Shown here piece after piece: positions 13,190-26,451 of a stretch of DNA of 45,880 bases (within the stretch, counting starts at the first letter, position 1; each line of letters begins with the position of its first letter). The notes under the pieces are model-generated. The model ran no database searches. It saw only the letters and a list, made by a program, of their open reading frames with translations, and had not been told where the DNA came from. A program made the position numbers and the translations under genes. Source of the DNA: a virus (taxonomy: Duplodnaviria; Heunggongvirae; Uroviricota; Caudoviricetes); the IMG/VR virus record IMGVR_UViG_2870484749_000003, positions 1-45,880 of that record; one strand, 5' to 3'.

Positions 13190-14230
13190 GTGAACATTCA
13201 AGCAGTAGACATTTTTTGTGGCGCAGGGGGCTTAACTTTTGGGCTAAAAAAAGCCGGGATTGAAGTTTCTCATGGCATTGATATTGATGAGTCCTGCCGT
13301 TTCGCTATTGAGAGCAATAATCCCTTAACGAAGTTCATTAACCAGTCAGTTACTGAACTGCAATCCAGCGATGTGTCTGCTATGTTCAAGGAAGGAAATA
13401 TTAGATTACTTGCAGGCTGTGCCCCTTGCCAACCGTTTTCCAAGTATCGTAATCCAAATAGCAGAAAAGATGATACAAAGTGGCGTCTTTTATCTGAGTT
13501 TCAGAGGATTGTAAGTGATGTCATGCCAGAGCTTGTGACTATGGAAAATGTTCCTCAACTTAGAAATCATAAGGTTTTTGAAGAGTTTGTTAGTGTATTA
13601 AAGACTCTTGGGTATCATCTGTGGTACGACGTTGTAAAATGTTCCGAGTATGGCTTGCCTCAAAATAGACGTAGATTAATTCTAATTGGGTCCATATTGG
13701 GGCCAATCAGCCTTGATCAAAAAAAAGTAAGCCGTAAAGTTACAGTAAAGGATGCTATTGGTCAGTTGCCAAAAATAGGTGCAGGGGAGAAACTCGAAAG
13801 TGATCCATTGCATCGTTCGCCTAAATTAAGGGATATTAACCTTAAACGAATCTTGCACTCTTTACCAGGTGGTACGTGGGATGATTGGCCTGAAGAAATT
13901 AGAGCGGATTGCCATAAAAAGCATTCAGGTGCTACCTATAAAAGTGTTTATGGACGGATGGTTTGGGACGATACTAGTCCTACAATAACTACCCAATGTT
14001 ATGGATATGGTAATGGGCGATTCGGACATCCTGAGCAAAATAGAGCAATAACTTTGCGTGAAGCTGCTATTTTACAATCTTTTCCTATGGATTATAAATT
14101 TATTGGAAAAAATACGCCTTTTTCATTCCAAAAGTTAGGAACGATGATTGGTAATGCTGTTCCCCCTATAATTGGCCAAGTAATAGGGAGAACGTTTGTT
14201 AGGCATGTTGAGGGGATAAATATCCGTTAG
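13190..14230 (+). CDS. DNA (cytosine-5)-methyltransferase (Dcm-like)
   Basis: Canonical C5-MTase motifs: FCGAGG (I), GCAPCQPFS (IV, catalytic PC), ENV (VI), QNRRR (VIII), GNAVPP (X); GTG start with GGAG RBS; AT-rich by eye. Confidence 0.9.
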   Translation: MNIQAVDIFCGAGGLTFGLKKAGIEVSHGIDIDESCRFAIESNNPLTKFINQSVTELQSSDVSAMFKEGNIRLLAGCAPCQPFSKYRNPNSRKDDTKWRLLSEFQRIVSDVMPELVTMENVPQLRNHKVFEEFVSVLKTLGYHLWYDVVKCSEYGLPQNRRRLILIGSILGPISLDQKKVSRKVTVKDAIGQLPKIGAGEKLESDPLHRSPKLRDINLKRILHSLPGGTWDDWPEEIRADCHKKHSGATYKSVYGRMVWDDTSPTITTQCYGYGNGRFGHPEQNRAITLREAAILQSFPMDYKFIGKNTPFSFQKLGTMIGNAVPPIIGQVIGRTFVRHVEGINIR

Positions 14231-14888
14231 AGATAATATAATCTTCAGTTGAGTTTATTAATAAACGAAGATATAGATCAACTCTCTCTGCTCTAGACTT
14301 AACTTCTTCTAAGGGGTCAATTTGCCCCTTTTTAGAGAAGCTAGTACTTCCATGCGCGAGTTCGTTTCTGATATCCTTAAGCAAGTCTAAGTCAATACCA
14401 TTTCTACATTCAGGTGAGTTTGCGATAGTTATTCCGTAAGCCTGCGTTATTTTGTGTAATACAGGCTTGCAAACATTACCATTGAATTCTTTACGAATAT
14501 TCAATGAGGCTGAAATTATTCTTTTGGAAATGTCAGTGCCTATCTTTTTATAAAGGGATTGCCCTGTTTCATTATCTGAAACAATTCTATGTAATATATT
14601 TACTTGAAGCTTCTCCCTGAGTGATGCGTAATTCACCTCATTATCTTGTAAATGATCATAAATTGACTCGATGCAACCTCTGGCAGTATTTTCAACTTGA
14701 TTATATAGCATCATATGAACGGATGATTTTAAAATATTTACCCTTAGGATATTAGATTCTATTTCATCTTGATGCGCTTGCGGATCTAACTGCTGAGTAT
14801 GAATCTCTATAGATGATGCAAGAGAAAGCAGTTCCATAATGTCTCTTGCTCTTTCTTCATATTCATCTCGTAAATCAATTAGACTCAT
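14199..14888 (-). CDS. HEPN-like nuclease (resembles MAE_28990/MAE_18760 family)
   Basis: C-terminal Rx4H HEPN motif in DIRNELAHG; start 2 nt after the DUF262 stop; 3' end overlaps the convergent C5-MTase by 32 bp; AT-rich. Confidence 0.75.
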   Translation of the reverse strand: MSLIDLRDEYEERARDIMELLSLASSIEIHTQQLDPQAHQDEIESNILRVNILKSSVHMMLYNQVENTARGCIESIYDHLQDNEVNYASLREKLQVNILHRIVSDNETGQSLYKKIGTDISKRIISASLNIRKEFNGNVCKPVLHKITQAYGITIANSPECRNGIDLDLLKDIRNELAHGSTSFSKKGQIDPLEEVKSRAERVDLYLRLLINSTEDYIISNGYLSPQHA

Positions 14889-14890
14889 TT

Positions 14891-16051
14891 TTAAATCCCT
14901 AACAACTTATTTTTAACGTAAAAGATTCTGTTTTTTAGCTGGCTGGTATTGTTTGCACTATCAGCAGTAACAAGTGTTTCAAATTCCTCTTCAAATAGCC
15001 ATTCACCTACAGGTACGGCTGGACTCTGGAGTTGTGGGTTAGTTTTTAATGCAAGTGCAGTTCCCACGGCAATGGCTTCGTATCTGGCTCGTGGGGTGGT
15101 TTTACTTGTTGCGGTCTTTTTAAAGCCAATAGGGAAATGGGTAGCAACAAAAGCAAGCATCATTTCAAAATCATGTTTAAAATTATCAACATCTTGTTGA
15201 GTAGTCACAGCTGCTGCTTGTTCATTTAAATAATTATCAATAAAGGGACGGACAAATCCCTTATAGTTTTCTAAATCATTTAAATATGCAAAAAATCTCA
15301 AAACTAACTCACGATGATCGCCATTCGACCGTTTCCGGTCTGATAATGGAGCTAGTTGGGAAAAAAGTGAGTTTGTTGAGCATGGGGTCACAACATCTTT
15401 ATAGAACATTGAGGTAGCAGCATCTGAGCCATGCCTCACTTCCATCGCTTCTAATCTTTTAACACCTGAGTTGATCCTTTCAAATAAATCTCTTCTATGT
15501 TGTTCCTCAACATCACCTTTCAACTCAATAAATCTTAGTGAAGCTCTTAAAAATCTTCTTTGGCGGCTAGCTAAAAGATCTGAAAATTTGAAACCTTCTA
15601 AACTTTTAAGCTCTTTCAAATCCTTTAACTCAAATTGATCGTTCCAAAAATAATAAATAGAGCGTATCCGTTGTGAACCATCAATGATTTCTACCCTACC
15701 ATCTAATTCAGGGTCTTCATTAAATACATCAGCAATGTAAAGGTAAGGTATTGGAAAGTCTAATAGAATACTTTCTATAAAGCGAGAGGCTGTTTTTGTA
15801 TCCCACTTGTAATCACGTTGATAATCTGGAATAAAAAGCTCGTTTTTGTCATTTTCAATATTATCACCATACTTTTGAATAATGACTTCAACGGTCCACT
15901 CACGTACATTGTATCCAATGTTTCTCTGAGCGAGTCTGATTTCATTGTCAGCGGAAGCGGTTAAAGCTGCAATTTCAGCCTTTTTTCTGTTCTTAGCGTG
16001 TTCATCTTGTATCTGAGCAAGCTCTTCTTTGAGTTCTTTGAGTGTAGTCAT
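14891..16051 (-). CDS. DUF262 (ParB/Srx-like) domain protein
   Basis: IPDYQRDYKW and IDGSQR (DGQQR-type) DUF262 signatures; AAGGAA RBS; no recognisable DUF1524/HNH C-terminal domain; AT-rich. Confidence 0.8.
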   Translation of the reverse strand: MTTLKELKEELAQIQDEHAKNRKKAEIAALTASADNEIRLAQRNIGYNVREWTVEVIIQKYGDNIENDKNELFIPDYQRDYKWDTKTASRFIESILLDFPIPYLYIADVFNEDPELDGRVEIIDGSQRIRSIYYFWNDQFELKDLKELKSLEGFKFSDLLASRQRRFLRASLRFIELKGDVEEQHRRDLFERINSGVKRLEAMEVRHGSDAATSMFYKDVVTPCSTNSLFSQLAPLSDRKRSNGDHRELVLRFFAYLNDLENYKGFVRPFIDNYLNEQAAAVTTQQDVDNFKHDFEMMLAFVATHFPIGFKKTATSKTTPRARYEAIAVGTALALKTNPQLQSPAVPVGEWLFEEEFETLVTADSANNTSQLKNRIFYVKNKLLGI

Positions 16052-16067: not shown

Positions 16068-16096
16068 TTGAAAGTTGATTGTAAGAAAACTATAAC
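16068..16096 (+). promoter_or_regulatory. candidate sigma70 promoter (TTGAAA-N17-TATAAC), possibly the late promoter feeding the terminator at 16152
   Basis: -35/-10 match by eye about 55 nt upstream of a strong terminator, resembling a pR'/tR' arrangement; speculative. Confidence 0.25.
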
Positions 16097-16151
16097 GCGT
16101 ACGCAAAAAGTATTGTATTGTGTTAAGAGTGGTTACTTCGCCACACAACTT

Positions 16152-16178
16152 AAACCCGCCGTCGAGCGGGTTTTTTTG
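16152..16178 (+). terminator. rho-independent terminator (candidate tR')
   Basis: cccgc-cgtcga-gcggg hairpin followed by ttttttt. Confidence 0.7.
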
Positions 16179-16299
16179 TACCTGTAAACCTGGTGCAGTA
16201 CGGTAAACACGCTGGTGGTCGTGAATACTGACTTTTTATCTTGCTGGCTTTTTAGACAAGAGTTATTGGTATGTCATGTTAACCAGAAGGAAAAAAGAC

Positions 16300-22561: not shown

Positions 22562-24069
22562 TGGCAATTCTTGATGATGTGATTGGCGTTTTTTCACCAG
22601 GATGGAAAGCGGCAAGGCTGCGTTCCCGGGCGGTGATCCAGGCTTATGAGGCCGTAAAAACGACGCGGACACACAAAGCCCGGCGGGAAAACCGAACTGC
22701 CGACCAGTTAAGCCAGTACGGGGCCGTGTCGTTACGTGAGCAGGCCCGTTACCTTGATAACAACCACGATCTGGTCATTGGTGTATTTGACAAGCTGGAA
22801 GAACGGGTGGTGGGGAAAAACGGGATTATTGTCGAGCCACATCCGGTATTACGCAATGGGGCCATTGCCCGTGATCTGGCTGCGGAGATTCGCACCCGAT
22901 GGAGTGAATGGTCTGTCAGCCCGGAAGTCACCGGGCAGTTTACCCGTCCGATGCTGGAACGTCTGATGCTGCGTACCTGGCTGCGCGATGGTGAGGTGTT
23001 TGCCCAGATGGTTTCCGGGCGCATAAACAGCCTGACGCCTTCTGCCGGTGTTCATTTCTGGCTGGAGGCGCTCGAGCCGGACTTTATTCCCATGACCAGT
23101 GATGAGAGCAACAGGCTGAATCAGGGCGTGTTTGTTGATGACTGGGGGCGTCCCGAAAAATATCTGGTGTATAAAAGCCGTCCCGTATCCGGACGGCAGA
23201 TGGAAACCAAAGAAGTGGATGCAGAGCGAATGCTGCATCTTAAATTTGTTCGCCGTCTGCACCAGATGCGCGGGACGTCTTTATTGTCCGGTGTGCTGAT
23301 CCGCCTCAGTGCTCTGAAAGAGTATGAAGATTCTGAGCTGACTGCAGCAAGGATCGCCGCTGCTCTGGGGATGTACATCCGGAAAGGCGACGGGCAGAGC
23401 TATGAAGCGGATGGTAATGGCAGCAAGGATAAGGAACGCGAGCTTACCATTCAGCCAGGCATTATTTACGATGATCTGAAACCCGGCGAAGAAATCGGAA
23501 TGGTGAAGTCGGATCGCCCCAATCCTAACCTTGAAACTTTTCGTAATGGTCAGTTGCGTGCCGTGGCGGCGGGCAGTCGTCTGAGTTTTTCCAGTACAGC
23601 GCGCAACTATAACGGCACTTACAGCGCCCAGCGTCAGGAGCTGGTTGAATCCACTGATGGCTACCTGATCCTGCAGGACTGGTTTATTGGTGCCGTCACC
23701 CGTCCGATGTATCGTGCCTGGCTGAAACAGGCTGTGGCATCCGGTGTTATCAGGCTACCCCGCGATCTTGACCGTTCTTCACTGTATACCGCGGTGTATT
23801 CCGGACCGGTGATGCCGTGGATTGACCCTGTTAAGGAGGCTGAGGCCTGGAAAATCCAGATTCGTGGTGGAGCGGCGACAGAATCAGACTGGGTACGTGC
23901 TGGTGGTCGTAATCCGGATGATGTCAAACGTCGGCGCAAGGCCGAAATTGATGAAAACCGCAAACTGGATCTGGTATTTGATACCGATCCGGCCAGTGAT
24001 AAAGGAGGCAGCAGTGCCGCAACGAAACGACAGGAGCCGCAGCACACCGACGACCAGTCCGAAGAATAA
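22561..24069 (+). CDS. portal protein (lambda gpB family)
   Basis: About 500 aa after the W-like gene; start taken at the ATG overlapping the W stop. Confidence 0.85.
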   Translation: MAILDDVIGVFSPGWKAARLRSRAVIQAYEAVKTTRTHKARRENRTADQLSQYGAVSLREQARYLDNNHDLVIGVFDKLEERVVGKNGIIVEPHPVLRNGAIARDLAAEIRTRWSEWSVSPEVTGQFTRPMLERLMLRTWLRDGEVFAQMVSGRINSLTPSAGVHFWLEALEPDFIPMTSDESNRLNQGVFVDDWGRPEKYLVYKSRPVSGRQMETKEVDAERMLHLKFVRRLHQMRGTSLLSGVLIRLSALKEYEDSELTAARIAAALGMYIRKGDGQSYEADGNGSKDKERELTIQPGIIYDDLKPGEEIGMVKSDRPNPNLETFRNGQLRAVAAGSRLSFSSTARNYNGTYSAQRQELVESTDGYLILQDWFIGAVTRPMYRAWLKQAVASGVIRLPRDLDRSSLYTAVYSGPVMPWIDPVKEAEAWKIQIRGGAATESDWVRAGGRNPDDVKRRRKAEIDENRKLDLVFDTDPASDKGGSSAATKRQEPQHTDDQSEE

Positions 24070-24082
24070 TTCCTGGTTCAGG

Positions 24083-26041
24083 ATGCAGGCTGGTCACCAG
24101 AGTGACGCGGATATTTATATTTATGACGAGATTGGTTTCTGGGGTGTTACAGCGAAGCAGTTTATCAGTGATCTGAATGCACTGGGCGATATCACCCACA
24201 TTAATCTCCATATTAATTCACCGGGTGGCGATGTCTTTGAAGGCATCGCCATTTTTAATGCGCTGAAAACACATGGTGCGTCCATTACCGTTTATGTCGA
24301 CGGTGTGGCGGCGTCAATGGCGTCGGTCATTGCGATGGTGGGAAACCCGGTCATTATGCCGGAAAACACCTTCATGATGATTCATAAACCATTTGGCTTT
24401 ACGGGCGGTGATGCGGAGGACATGCGCACCTATGCCGACCTGCTCGATAAAGTTGAGGCGGTTCTGTTACCCGCTTATGCACAGAAAACCGGGAAAACCA
24501 CCGATGAAATTGCTGCCATGCTGGCGGATGAGACCTGGATGTCCGGTGCCGAATGTCTGGCACATGGATTTGCTGATCAGGTAACGCCAGCCGTTAAGGC
24601 AATGGCATGTATTCAGTCAAAACGTACAGAGGAATTTAAAAAGATGCCGGAATCCATTCGAAACATGATTACTCCGCCACGCAACAGTGCTCCACGCGTA
24701 CAGGATGATGAACCTGCAGCCTCCCGGACGCCAGTGCAGGCAGCAGCACCCGTGGTGGATGAAAACAGTATCCGTGCGCAGGTACTGGCAGAGCAAAAAG
24801 CGCGTGTAAACGGTATTAATGATCTGTTTGCCATGTTTGGCGGGCGTTATCAGACGCTGCAGGCCCAGTGTCTTGCCGATCCTGAATGTTCGCTGGAGCA
24901 GGCCCGCGAAAAGTTGTTGAACGAGATGGGGCGCGAGTCCACGCCATCCAATAAAAATACCCCGGCTCATATTTATGCCGGTAACGGTAATTTTGTGGGG
25001 GACGGGATCCGCCAGGCGCTGATGGCGCGTGCCGGATTTGAAAAAACCGAACGTGATAATGTCTACAACGGGATGACCCTGCGTGAATATGCCCGTATGT
25101 CACTGACTGAACGGGGTATTGGGGTTTCCGGTTATAACCCGATGCAGATGGTCGGTGCGGCGTTCACACACAGTACGTCTGACTTCGGTAATATTCTGCT
25201 GGATGTTGCGAACAAAGCCATTCTGCAGGGCTGGGAAGATGCCCCTGAAACCTATGAACAGTGGACGCGGAAAGGTCAGTTGTCTGATTTTAAAATTGCC
25301 CATCGTGTGGGTATGGGGGGCTTCAGTGCTCTGCGTCAGGTGCGTGAAGGGGCGGAATATAAATACGTCACCACCGGAGATAAACAGGCCACTATTGCAC
25401 TGGCGACCTATGGCGAGCTGTTCAGTATCACCCGTCAGGCCATTATCAATGATGATCTGAATATGCTGACCGATGTCCCGATGAAGCTGGGCCGTGCGGC
25501 GAAATCCACTATTGCCGATCTGGTTTATGCCATTCTGACGTCTAACCCGAAAATCTCCACAGATAATGTAAGTCTGTTCGATAAAGCGAAACATGCAAAC
25601 GTACTGGAGAGCGCTGCAATGGACGTGGCATCGCTGGATAAAGCCCGCCAGTTGATGCGCGTTCAGAAAGAGGGGGAGCGTCATCTGAATATTCGTCCTG
25701 CGTTCGTACTGGTACCGACGGCGATGGAGTCTGTTGCTAACCAGGTCATTCGCTCCTCAAGTGTCAAGGGGGCTGACATTAACGCCGGTATTATTAACCC
25801 GGTGAAAGATTTTGCGACCGTTATTGCAGAGCCTCGTCTTGATGATAACAGCCAGACCACCTTCTACCTGGCTGCGTCAAAAGGCTCCGATACGATTGAA
25901 GTGGCTTATCTCAACGGTGTGGATACGCCATATATTGATCAGATGGAGGGCTTCAGTGTGGATGGCGTGACAACGAAAGTGCGTATTGACGCCGGTGTCG
26001 CGCCAGTTGATCACCGCGGTCTGGTGAAATGTACGGCGTAA
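24083..26041 (+). CDS. head maturation protease (ClpP/S49-like) fused to an HK97-fold major capsid protein
   Basis: N-terminal ClpP-like region (INSPGGDVFEGIAIFNALKTH...VDGVAASMASVIAM) and C-terminal capsid-like region in one uninterrupted ORF; start taken at MQAGHQ just after the portal stop. Confidence 0.75.
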   Translation: MQAGHQSDADIYIYDEIGFWGVTAKQFISDLNALGDITHINLHINSPGGDVFEGIAIFNALKTHGASITVYVDGVAASMASVIAMVGNPVIMPENTFMMIHKPFGFTGGDAEDMRTYADLLDKVEAVLLPAYAQKTGKTTDEIAAMLADETWMSGAECLAHGFADQVTPAVKAMACIQSKRTEEFKKMPESIRNMITPPRNSAPRVQDDEPAASRTPVQAAAPVVDENSIRAQVLAEQKARVNGINDLFAMFGGRYQTLQAQCLADPECSLEQAREKLLNEMGRESTPSNKNTPAHIYAGNGNFVGDGIRQALMARAGFEKTERDNVYNGMTLREYARMSLTERGIGVSGYNPMQMVGAAFTHSTSDFGNILLDVANKAILQGWEDAPETYEQWTRKGQLSDFKIAHRVGMGGFSALRQVREGAEYKYVTTGDKQATIALATYGELFSITRQAIINDDLNMLTDVPMKLGRAAKSTIADLVYAILTSNPKISTDNVSLFDKAKHANVLESAAMDVASLDKARQLMRVQKEGERHLNIRPAFVLVPTAMESVANQVIRSSSVKGADINAGIINPVKDFATVIAEPRLDDNSQTTFYLAASKGSDTIEVAYLNGVDTPYIDQMEGFSVDGVTTKVRIDAGVAPVDHRGLVKCTA

Positions 26042-26065
26042 ACGTCGCAGACAACAACTCTGATG

Positions 26066-26085
26066 GCCCGTAAGGGCTTTTTTTG
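26066..26085 (+). terminator. weak rho-independent terminator after the capsid gene
   Basis: gccc-gtaa-gggc hairpin followed by ttttttt. Confidence 0.45.
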
Positions 26086-26127
26086 TACCTGAAATCAGCC
26101 CCTGAACGGGGCTGTGCGGAGACAGTT

Positions 26128-26451
26128 ATGGCAAAGAATTTTGTAGAAGAAGGAAAAACGGTGGCGATTGTTGCCAGTGCAGCCATCAGCAGCGGAGATC
26201 TGGTGCAGGTGGGTGATGTTTTTGCGGTGGCGCTGACCGATATTCCACAGGGTGAAACAGGCGACGGCATGACCGAAGGTGTGTTTATGCTGCCTAAGCT
26301 GAAAACGGATGACATGAAAACGGGTAAGAAGGTTTATCTGAAGTCCGGAAAAGTTCAGCTGACTAACAGCGGCTCTGATCCGCTGGTCGGGGTTGTCTGG
26401 GCAGATGCCGGAACCAGTGCAGAAGAAGTGCCGGTAAAACTCAATGTCTGA
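26128..26451 (+). CDS. head-associated protein (DUF2190-like, putative decoration/stabilisation protein)
   Basis: 107 aa from MAKNFVEEGKT with GGAG RBS; position after the capsid gene. Confidence 0.5.
   Translation: MAKNFVEEGKTVAIVASAAISSGDLVQVGDVFAVALTDIPQGETGDGMTEGVFMLPKLKTDDMKTGKKVYLKSGKVQLTNSGSDPLVGVVWADAGTSAEEVPVKLNV

Follow-up and report, generated by a model that had tools for sequence, protein, structure and literature searches.

Terminators are typical edges of moron inserts in lambdoid phages, in which illegitimate or micro-homology recombination links morons and modules. This moron and module-boundary architecture was reportedly set out by Juhala, Hendrix and colleagues. The lambdoid late promoter is constitutive and its transcription is terminated immediately downstream until Q acts, as illustrated by lambda 6S RNA and by StxS (PMC7547250). 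Terminators inside late operons, after the capsid or procapsid module, are known from phage L/P22 and described as common, although "their roles are not known"; partial termination or the stopping of spurious transcription has been suggested in the phage L study (PMC8022706).

The sequence features of intrinsic terminators have been derived from about 10^4 sequences with mapped termination sites, among which strong terminators carry GC(U)7RU (Battaglia, Ermis, Omollo and Li, bioRxiv 2026, doi 10.64898/2026.05.29.728758). In this signature, termed HUB, the RNA 3' end is the final U. Termination depends on the GC and RU dinucleotides, which are similar to the elemental pause signal GS(N)7RY (doi 10.64898/2026.05.29.728758). 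The HUB consensus comes from a single preprint and was obtained mostly in vitro with RNA polymerase from Bacillus subtilis, the E. coli enzyme serving as a check (doi 10.64898/2026.05.29.728758).

The window analysed here (the whole stretch of 45,880 nucleotides) is a lambdoid phage of the mEp460/cdtI/Ayreon/SfV group. The first-pass annotation had noticed that one 14-mer, TTTTTTTGTACCTG, is located on the 3' side of two separate terminators, and both its description and its coordinates prove correct, from the sequence as well as from a terminator scan. A whole-window search finds exactly two exact copies, on the + strand, at 16171-16184 (site 1) and 26078-26091 (site 2), and no further copy in the 45.9-kb window when up to two mismatches are allowed. 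Each copy begins inside or right behind a G+C-rich hairpin of the same strand, and both hairpins are found by the terminator scan (Table 1). We consider it quite probable (about 0.77) that these are two independent, ordinary intrinsic terminators and that the shared 14-mer is the U7-R-U consensus plus a five-base coincidence.

Table 1. Features of the cargo slot with site 1 and of the capsid-decoration region with site 2 (window coordinates).
Feature	Position	Strand	Basis or remark
Antiterminator Q, small type, PF06530	12742..13110	+	Pfam E = 5e-46
Variable cargo between Q and site 1	13190..16051	both	Pfam, PADLOC, comparison of relatives
C5 cytosine methylase	13190..14230	+	Pfam
HEPN_MAE_28990 protein	14199..14888	-	Pfam
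GmrSD_N protein, matches PADLOC models NsnA and PD-T4-2_A	14891..16051	-	Pfam, PADLOC
Segment common to small-Q phages whatever the cargo, ~66 nt	16086..16151	+	Alignment with cdtI and 569R4
Site 1 hairpin AAACCCGCC GTCGAG [G]GCGGGTTT, 8 pairs	16152..16173	+	Terminator scan, RNA fold
Site 1 U-tract, T7 + G-T (RU "bubble-edge" dinucleotide)	16171..16179	+	Sequence, consensus fit
Site 1 ACCTG, shared bases outside the terminator consensus	16180..16184	+	Not conserved among homologues
ClpP-protease/major-capsid fusion gene	23822..26041		Stop codon 24 nt before site 2
Site 2 hairpin 1, GGCCC GTAA GGGCT	26065..26078	+	Terminator scan
Site 2 U-tract, T7 + G-T	26078..26086	+	Sequence; T7 invariant, R-Y in every homologue
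Site 2 linker AC-CTGAAA-T, with CTGAAA at 26089-26094	26087..26095	+	AC variable (transitions only), CTGAAA conserved
Site 2 hairpin 2, CAGCCCC TGAAC GGGGCTG	26096..26114	+	Consensus fold
Shine-Dalgarno GGAG	26118-26121	+	Just downstream of hairpin 2
Cement/decoration gene, PF09956 Phage_cement_2	ATG at 26128		Pfam; ATG 50 nt after site 2

Terminator consensus and chance

That both elements are terminators, as initially proposed, is supported by their sequence: they are convincing intrinsic terminators, each with a hairpin and T7, and their homologues are annotated in the GenBank records of relatives (a rho-independent terminator in SfV and Ayreon for site 1, a terminator in Ayreon and mEp460 for site 2). 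They are of an ordinary, already known kind. The hairpin comprises 8 pairs (5 G-C) at site 1 and 5 pairs (4 G-C) at site 2, and the T7 of both sites lies within the usual U-tract length of about 7-9 nt. As in the canonical intrinsic terminator, a purine-U dinucleotide directly follows the 7-nt U-tract behind a G+C-rich hairpin. Inspection of the bubble-edge positions (GC at -11/-10, RU at -2/-1) shows that site 2, GGGC-T7-GT, is an exact GC(U)7RU. Site 1 reads CGGG-T7-GT: it has the RU dinucleotide and agrees with GS(N)7RY, but differs from the canonical GC(U)7RU terminator by having GG rather than GC at -11/-10 and by a stem which runs into the T-tract via A-U pairs.

The same bias is seen in related phages, where T-runs associated with a hairpin are followed by a purine in 87% and by R-Y in 83% of cases (75 distinct terminators, 1.7 Mb of related-phage DNA), the corresponding values for T-runs without a hairpin being 62% and 35%. 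Nine of the 14 shared bases, U7 plus G-U, thus belong to the terminator consensus and only ACCTG is left over. RNA polymerase would pause after the 7-nt U-tract and purine-U and release the RNA at that U, with predicted RNA 3' ends at 16179 (site 1) and 26086 (site 2). On the DNA, ACCTG would come immediately downstream of the release point, past the predicted 3' end, and hence be absent from the terminated RNA if this end is the U of GU; its identity at the two sites is most likely a coincidence.

The likeness between the two sites does not extend far. The 14-mer is followed by TAAAC at site 1 and by AAATC at site 2, and the identity amounts to 14 nt, or 17 with one gap, with a loose resemblance beyond it: (T)AAA, then C/T, then C. 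An ungapped comparison over 60 nt on each side reveals no likeness past the 14-mer plus AA, and the hairpins and flanks of the two sites are unrelated to each other.

The first-pass annotation called a 14-nt exact match unlikely by chance, which is incorrect as worded. First-order Markov simulations of the window yield on average 5.1 exact direct 14-mer pairs (sd 2.5), and the observed number is 14, with 10 maximal repeats of at least 14 nt. The window also contains 173 T-runs of five or more, among which two pairs have identical next 7 nt, with about 1.5 expected. A narrower coincidence is that both copies occur, in the same register, among the 8 strong hairpin sites of the window followed by T6 or longer. 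Its post hoc probability is ~0.0025 with the window composition and ~0.008 with the base frequencies after the 75 distinct related-phage terminators. This conditional probability (about 0.003-0.008) is low, yet it concerns, after the fact, one of many coincidences that a reader might flag.

No Rfam 15 family matches the window or either site at gathering thresholds, and a permissive search gives no meaningful match. The sub-threshold matches are terminator-like only. For example, Trp_leader reaches 19 bits, for a gathering score of 41; this weak match at site 1 reflects the resemblance of the stems to the E. coli trp attenuator hairpin. Another terminator of the window, at ~2245-2270 (AACCCGCC-TTCA-GGCGGGTT, T6), has stem arms nearly those of site 1 (AACCCGC...GCGGGTT) and also resembles the trp attenuator hairpin.

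The terminator bordering the cargo slot

Comparison with relatives indicates that site 1, besides being a terminator, is a mosaic joint that delimits a cargo slot on its right-hand side. Homology to relatives starts at 16086-16153, and the region downstream of site 1 encodes a 72-aa ORF, an N6/N4 methylase, a holin and an endolysin. The slot itself looks like a defence island in the window. Its methylase gene (+) and convergent HEPN gene (-) overlap by 32 nt at their 3' ends (14199-14230) without an intervening terminator, and methylase transcription would consequently run antisense into the two defence genes up to site 1.

In small-Q relatives, the terminator is always located 1.2-3.1 kb from Q, with at least 14 cargo length classes. 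For example, cdtI and 569R4 carry other minus-strand genes in the slot between Q and the terminator, and in cdtI only 24 nt separate the Q stop codon from the cargo. Since relatives with the same Q carry differing genes in the slot, the cargo apparently keeps Q apart from its target promoter. In Ayreon and mEp460, the site 1 hairpin is present twice (Ayreon copies at 1813-1856 and 2492-2530 of the retrieved locus) and flanks an insert of ~650 bp, which includes a lipoprotein-like ORF with a signal peptide and an LVGC lipobox. Different bases follow the two hairpin copies: GTGCCAG after the first and T6-GTACCTGTAAAC at the second. The insert resembles a moron that entered through recombination at the terminator. 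Site 1 therefore resembles lambdoid morons in bounding inserted cargo and in the duplication of its hairpin around an insert in these two phages. It is unlike lambdoid moron boundaries in that the 14-mer is found at two non-homologous places only, just one of which is a mosaic junction.

The proposal of the first-pass annotation that site 1 is a candidate tR' is supported for the SfV-type homologue. This allele always follows a large Q gene by 127 nt and has a promoter-like TTGCAT-17-TAAGAT in front of it, an arrangement that is the classic Q-pR'-tR' layout. The label is reasonable for site 1 because of this homology, and for the present phage it is one that we infer. Q lies 3 kb upstream of site 1 in the window, and a consensus promoter scan calls no promoter in the 16086-16151 segment. 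This segment, which is retained whatever the cargo, holds a -10-like hexamer TATTGT (TATnnT; 16111-16116), 36 nt before the hairpin, and a small predicted hairpin (GUGGU-UACUUC-GCCAC). It could contain a late promoter whose leader of ~55 nt would be ended by site 1. Its counterpart in Stx phages would be the short pR' transcript that functions as the small RNA StxS (PMC7547250), and site 1, like lambda tR' in the case of 6S RNA and like the StxS terminator (PMC7547250), would be the first terminator of the late region. Site 1 has no sequence similarity to lambda tR' or StxS. Moreover, unlike lambda tR', it is parted from Q by 1.2-3.1 kb of variable cargo in the window and in all small-Q relatives. 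As a candidate tR', site 1 would stop constitutive late-promoter transcription until Q makes the polymerase terminator-resistant; the Q-modified RNA polymerase would then read through both terminators.

The variability of site 1 was surveyed in 80 IMG/VR loci (81 anchor matches) by means of a conserved anchor located 20 nt downstream of the motif. Three terminator alleles occupy this position. The window type (T6-T8) is followed by GTACCTG in 50/81 matches and by ATACCTG in 6/81; the SfV type, which has a related hairpin, is followed by GTGCCTT (11/81), and an unrelated hairpin by ATAAATT (14/81). GTGCCAG and GTGCCTG also exist as site 1 variants, and the T-tract of the homologues varies from 6 to 8. 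The site 1 alleles are evidently interchangeable, since 25/81 have GTGCCTT or ATAAATT and GTGCCAG is found in addition. A coding role for the 39-aa ORF ending at TAA 16185-16187 was considered and rejected, as the site 1 alleles differ.

The capsid-decoration intercistronic element

Relatives of site 2 were assembled as two samples, one pattern-based and one anchored solely on the decoration protein, and the two agree. A genome-contig search with a single decoration protein retrieved near-identical relatives only, and the alignment-based scans are dominated by window-type copies, yet they include 21 distinct intergenic versions. All 21 share the same layout, with decoration proteins down to ~42% identity: GCCCG-nn-AGGGC, T7, R-Y-R-Y, CT(G/T)AAA, a variable hairpin 2, GGAG and the start codon. 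Among 14 lineage representatives, the mean pairwise identity of the 28-nt core (hairpin 1 to CTGAAA) is 92%, while that of the 28 nt directly upstream is 32% and that of the decoration gene start is 59%. The hairpin 1 stem (GCCC/GGGC) is invariant in 15 lineages. In the consensus fold, hairpin 2 includes 4 pairs with compensatory double changes and the linker is left unpaired. Phages of Providencia, Citrobacter and Klebsiella, and Gifsy-2, have a hairpin 1 of other sequence and keep T7, R-Y, CT(G/A)AA(A/G), hairpin 2 and GGAG. The two-hairpin element is absent from the Ralstonia relative, and the CTGAAA linker (26089-26094) is part of no Rfam family. By these alignments, site 2 is a strongly conserved two-hairpin element in which CTG(AAA) is truly constrained.

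The bases directly after T7 are more variable. In the pattern-based sample they are GTAC (57), ATAC (35), ATGC (18), GTGT (6), ACGC (6) and others (3); counted by lineage, GTAC is found in 2/14 and ATAC in 7/14. GTAC is a lineage-specific variant at site 2, and the exact identity of the 14-mer therefore depends on a lineage-specific transition there.

Several other explanations of features in this region were discarded. Pairing of CUG with CGG beside the Shine-Dalgarno sequence is not compatible with the base before GGAG, which varies (C/U/A) without compensation; pairing of the hairpin 1 3' arm with the hairpin 2 5' arm is not kept in Fels-1-type variants; and extension of the decoration gene in frame from a TTG at 26083 is contradicted by hairpin 2 indels that break the frame. 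The upstream fusion ORF (23822-26041), as called mechanically, starts at TTG and encodes 739 aa. Its true start is probably located further downstream, because relatives annotate shorter products.

Like the late-operon terminators of phage L/P22 (PMC8022706), site 2 is located right after the major capsid gene in an operon read by antiterminated polymerase. Terminator Tphi of T7 (NC_001604 24190-24230) is found at the corresponding gene position, behind major capsid gene 10, and reads GGGG-TTTTTT-G-CTGAAA-GGAGG-N7-ATG (gene 11), with CTGAAA followed by the ribosome-binding site. However, T7 is unrelated to the present phage and uses its own RNA polymerase, and the CTGAAA likeness to the site 2 linker may be due to chance. 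In contrast to both phage L/P22 and T7 Tphi, site 2 has a second, covarying hairpin between linker and Shine-Dalgarno sequence, and across Enterobacterales phages the conservation of its core is unusually high. It seems probable that the element sets the ratio of capsid message to downstream message, a dosage role which could be achieved by partial termination of non-antiterminated polymerase, by protection of the capsid-message 3' end, or by both.

Readings of the shared motif

The first-pass annotation had suggested that the 14-mer marks a shared module or processing signal. What stands of this suggestion is CTG(AAA), and only at site 2, where it is part of a truly conserved non-coding element. 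Otherwise the suggestion is not borne out, since T7-GT is consensus, ACCTG lies past the predicted 3' end, the sites are independent, site 1 is freely replaced by motif-less alleles and no other terminator carries the motif. Examined as a shared cassette, the motif has no extended similarity, two copies only and unlinked states at its two sites; examined as a conserved processing signal, it is lacking in 25/81 site 1 homologues and reduces to CTGAAA at site 2. Contigs on which both sites are readable combine T7-GTACCTG at site 2 either with GTACCTG (behind T6, T7 or T8) or with ATAAATT at site 1. Judged by these combinations, sites 1 and 2 vary independently and are unlinked across genomes.

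Among 87 distinct terminator/7-mer combinations, RYRCCTG is restricted to homologues of sites 1 and 2, plus one GCGCCTG, and 1.7 Mb of related-phage DNA yielded no third class of terminator carrying the motif. The motif is thus not a recurrent feature of terminators in these phages, as had been envisaged, except trivially at the two orthologous positions. An exact 14-mer scan of IMG/VR gives at least 119 loci. Among the matches listed, 85 are unrelated to either site; about one fifth of these are located behind a hairpin, a proportion to be expected of T7 runs, and what follows the 14-mer differs from match to match, with no common context. One metagenomic match (L097) has 18 nt in common with site 2; among 85 trials, such a match carries no significance. 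L027, L048, L082 and L092 carry TCACCCCGT(C/T)AG(C/T)GTGA-TTTTTTTGTACCTG in an intergenic position upstream of Rha/antirepressor-like early genes. This family was not accepted as a third class of terminator, since it lacks a G+C-rich stem and is located in an early regulatory intergenic region of unrelated phages. The stretch is probably a regulatory region rather than a terminator.

It has to be considered whether RYRY-CUG-(U)AAA after the U-tract could be a cis-acting signal with the same function at both sites, for example an RNase E-type cleavage site, a ribosome-standby segment in read-through late mRNA or a downstream-duplex element tuning pausing and termination. The conservation of the site 2 linker, T7-RY-nn-CTGAAA, greatly exceeds that of the surrounding sequence; the linker is retained in relatives with a different hairpin 1 and is predicted to be single-stranded between two hairpins. 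At site 1, CTG-TAAAC stands in the same register, and RYRC-CTG is present in two alleles (GTACCTG and GTGCCTG). The T6-G-CTGAAA-GGAGG of the post-capsid T7 Tphi and the low conditional chance of the coincidence point in the same direction. However, the 25/81 site 1 homologues with GTGCCTT or ATAAATT, and the existence of GTGCCAG, argue against a function at that site, and GTAC, which is needed for the exact 14-mer, is the variable part at site 2. No other related-phage terminator has the motif, the RNase E preference for U at +2 is lost in the variants CTGAAACC and CTGAAAAA, and ACCTG would be missing from the terminated RNA if its 3' end is the U of GU. A common function at both sites is therefore unlikely. 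A more specific proposal, that the U7-RY-nn-CUGAAA linker is a post-transcriptional control element and that the tR'-type terminator of the same phages has converged on part of the signal, is in our view rather improbable. If it were true, the linker would be a processing or ribosome-standby site setting the ratio of capsid to decoration protein in an operon whose polymerase ignores terminators.

Another possibility is common ancestry: illegitimate or micro-homology recombination at the T-tract would have copied the post-terminator bases from one site to the other, or to both from a single terminator cassette. Such a scar would suit site 1, which is demonstrably a recombination joint where homology to relatives begins exactly at the hairpin; the hairpin duplicated around the lipoprotein-like insert of Ayreon and mEp460, with different downstream bases, the three site 1 alleles and the 14 or more cargo lengths agree with it. 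Moreover, GTAC at site 2 is confined to a lineage where the window-type site 1 allele is common. However, the identity ends after 14 nt (17 with one gap) between unrelated hairpins, the sites are unlinked across genomes, and the relatives sampled contain no intermediate alleles, neither a site 1 copy with GTACCTGAAAT nor a site 2 copy with GTACCTGTAAAC. A tract of 5-7 nt is, in addition, too short to bear phylogenetic signal. We regard recombinational copying as distinctly improbable. A DNA-level binding site for a regulator or nucleoid protein beside both terminators is highly improbable: although GTAC is palindromic and GTACCTG forms with CAGTAC (16197-16202) an imperfect inverted repeat at site 1, no matching inverted repeat exists at site 2, no LexA or IHF consensus fits by eye, and the motif is not conserved at site 1 and has only two copies in 45.9 kb at up to two mismatches.

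The reading of two independent terminators removes a false lead. T7-G-T recurs after terminators because it is part of the terminator itself, and the 14-mer is not a separate signal, a result which in itself matters little. Two side results may be of modest use for phage biology. In lambdoid phages with a small Q, the region from Q to the late leader and terminator is a slot of highly variable, defence-rich cargo, and the capsid-decoration element, far better conserved than the neighbouring genes, bears on the role of terminators in antiterminated late operons.
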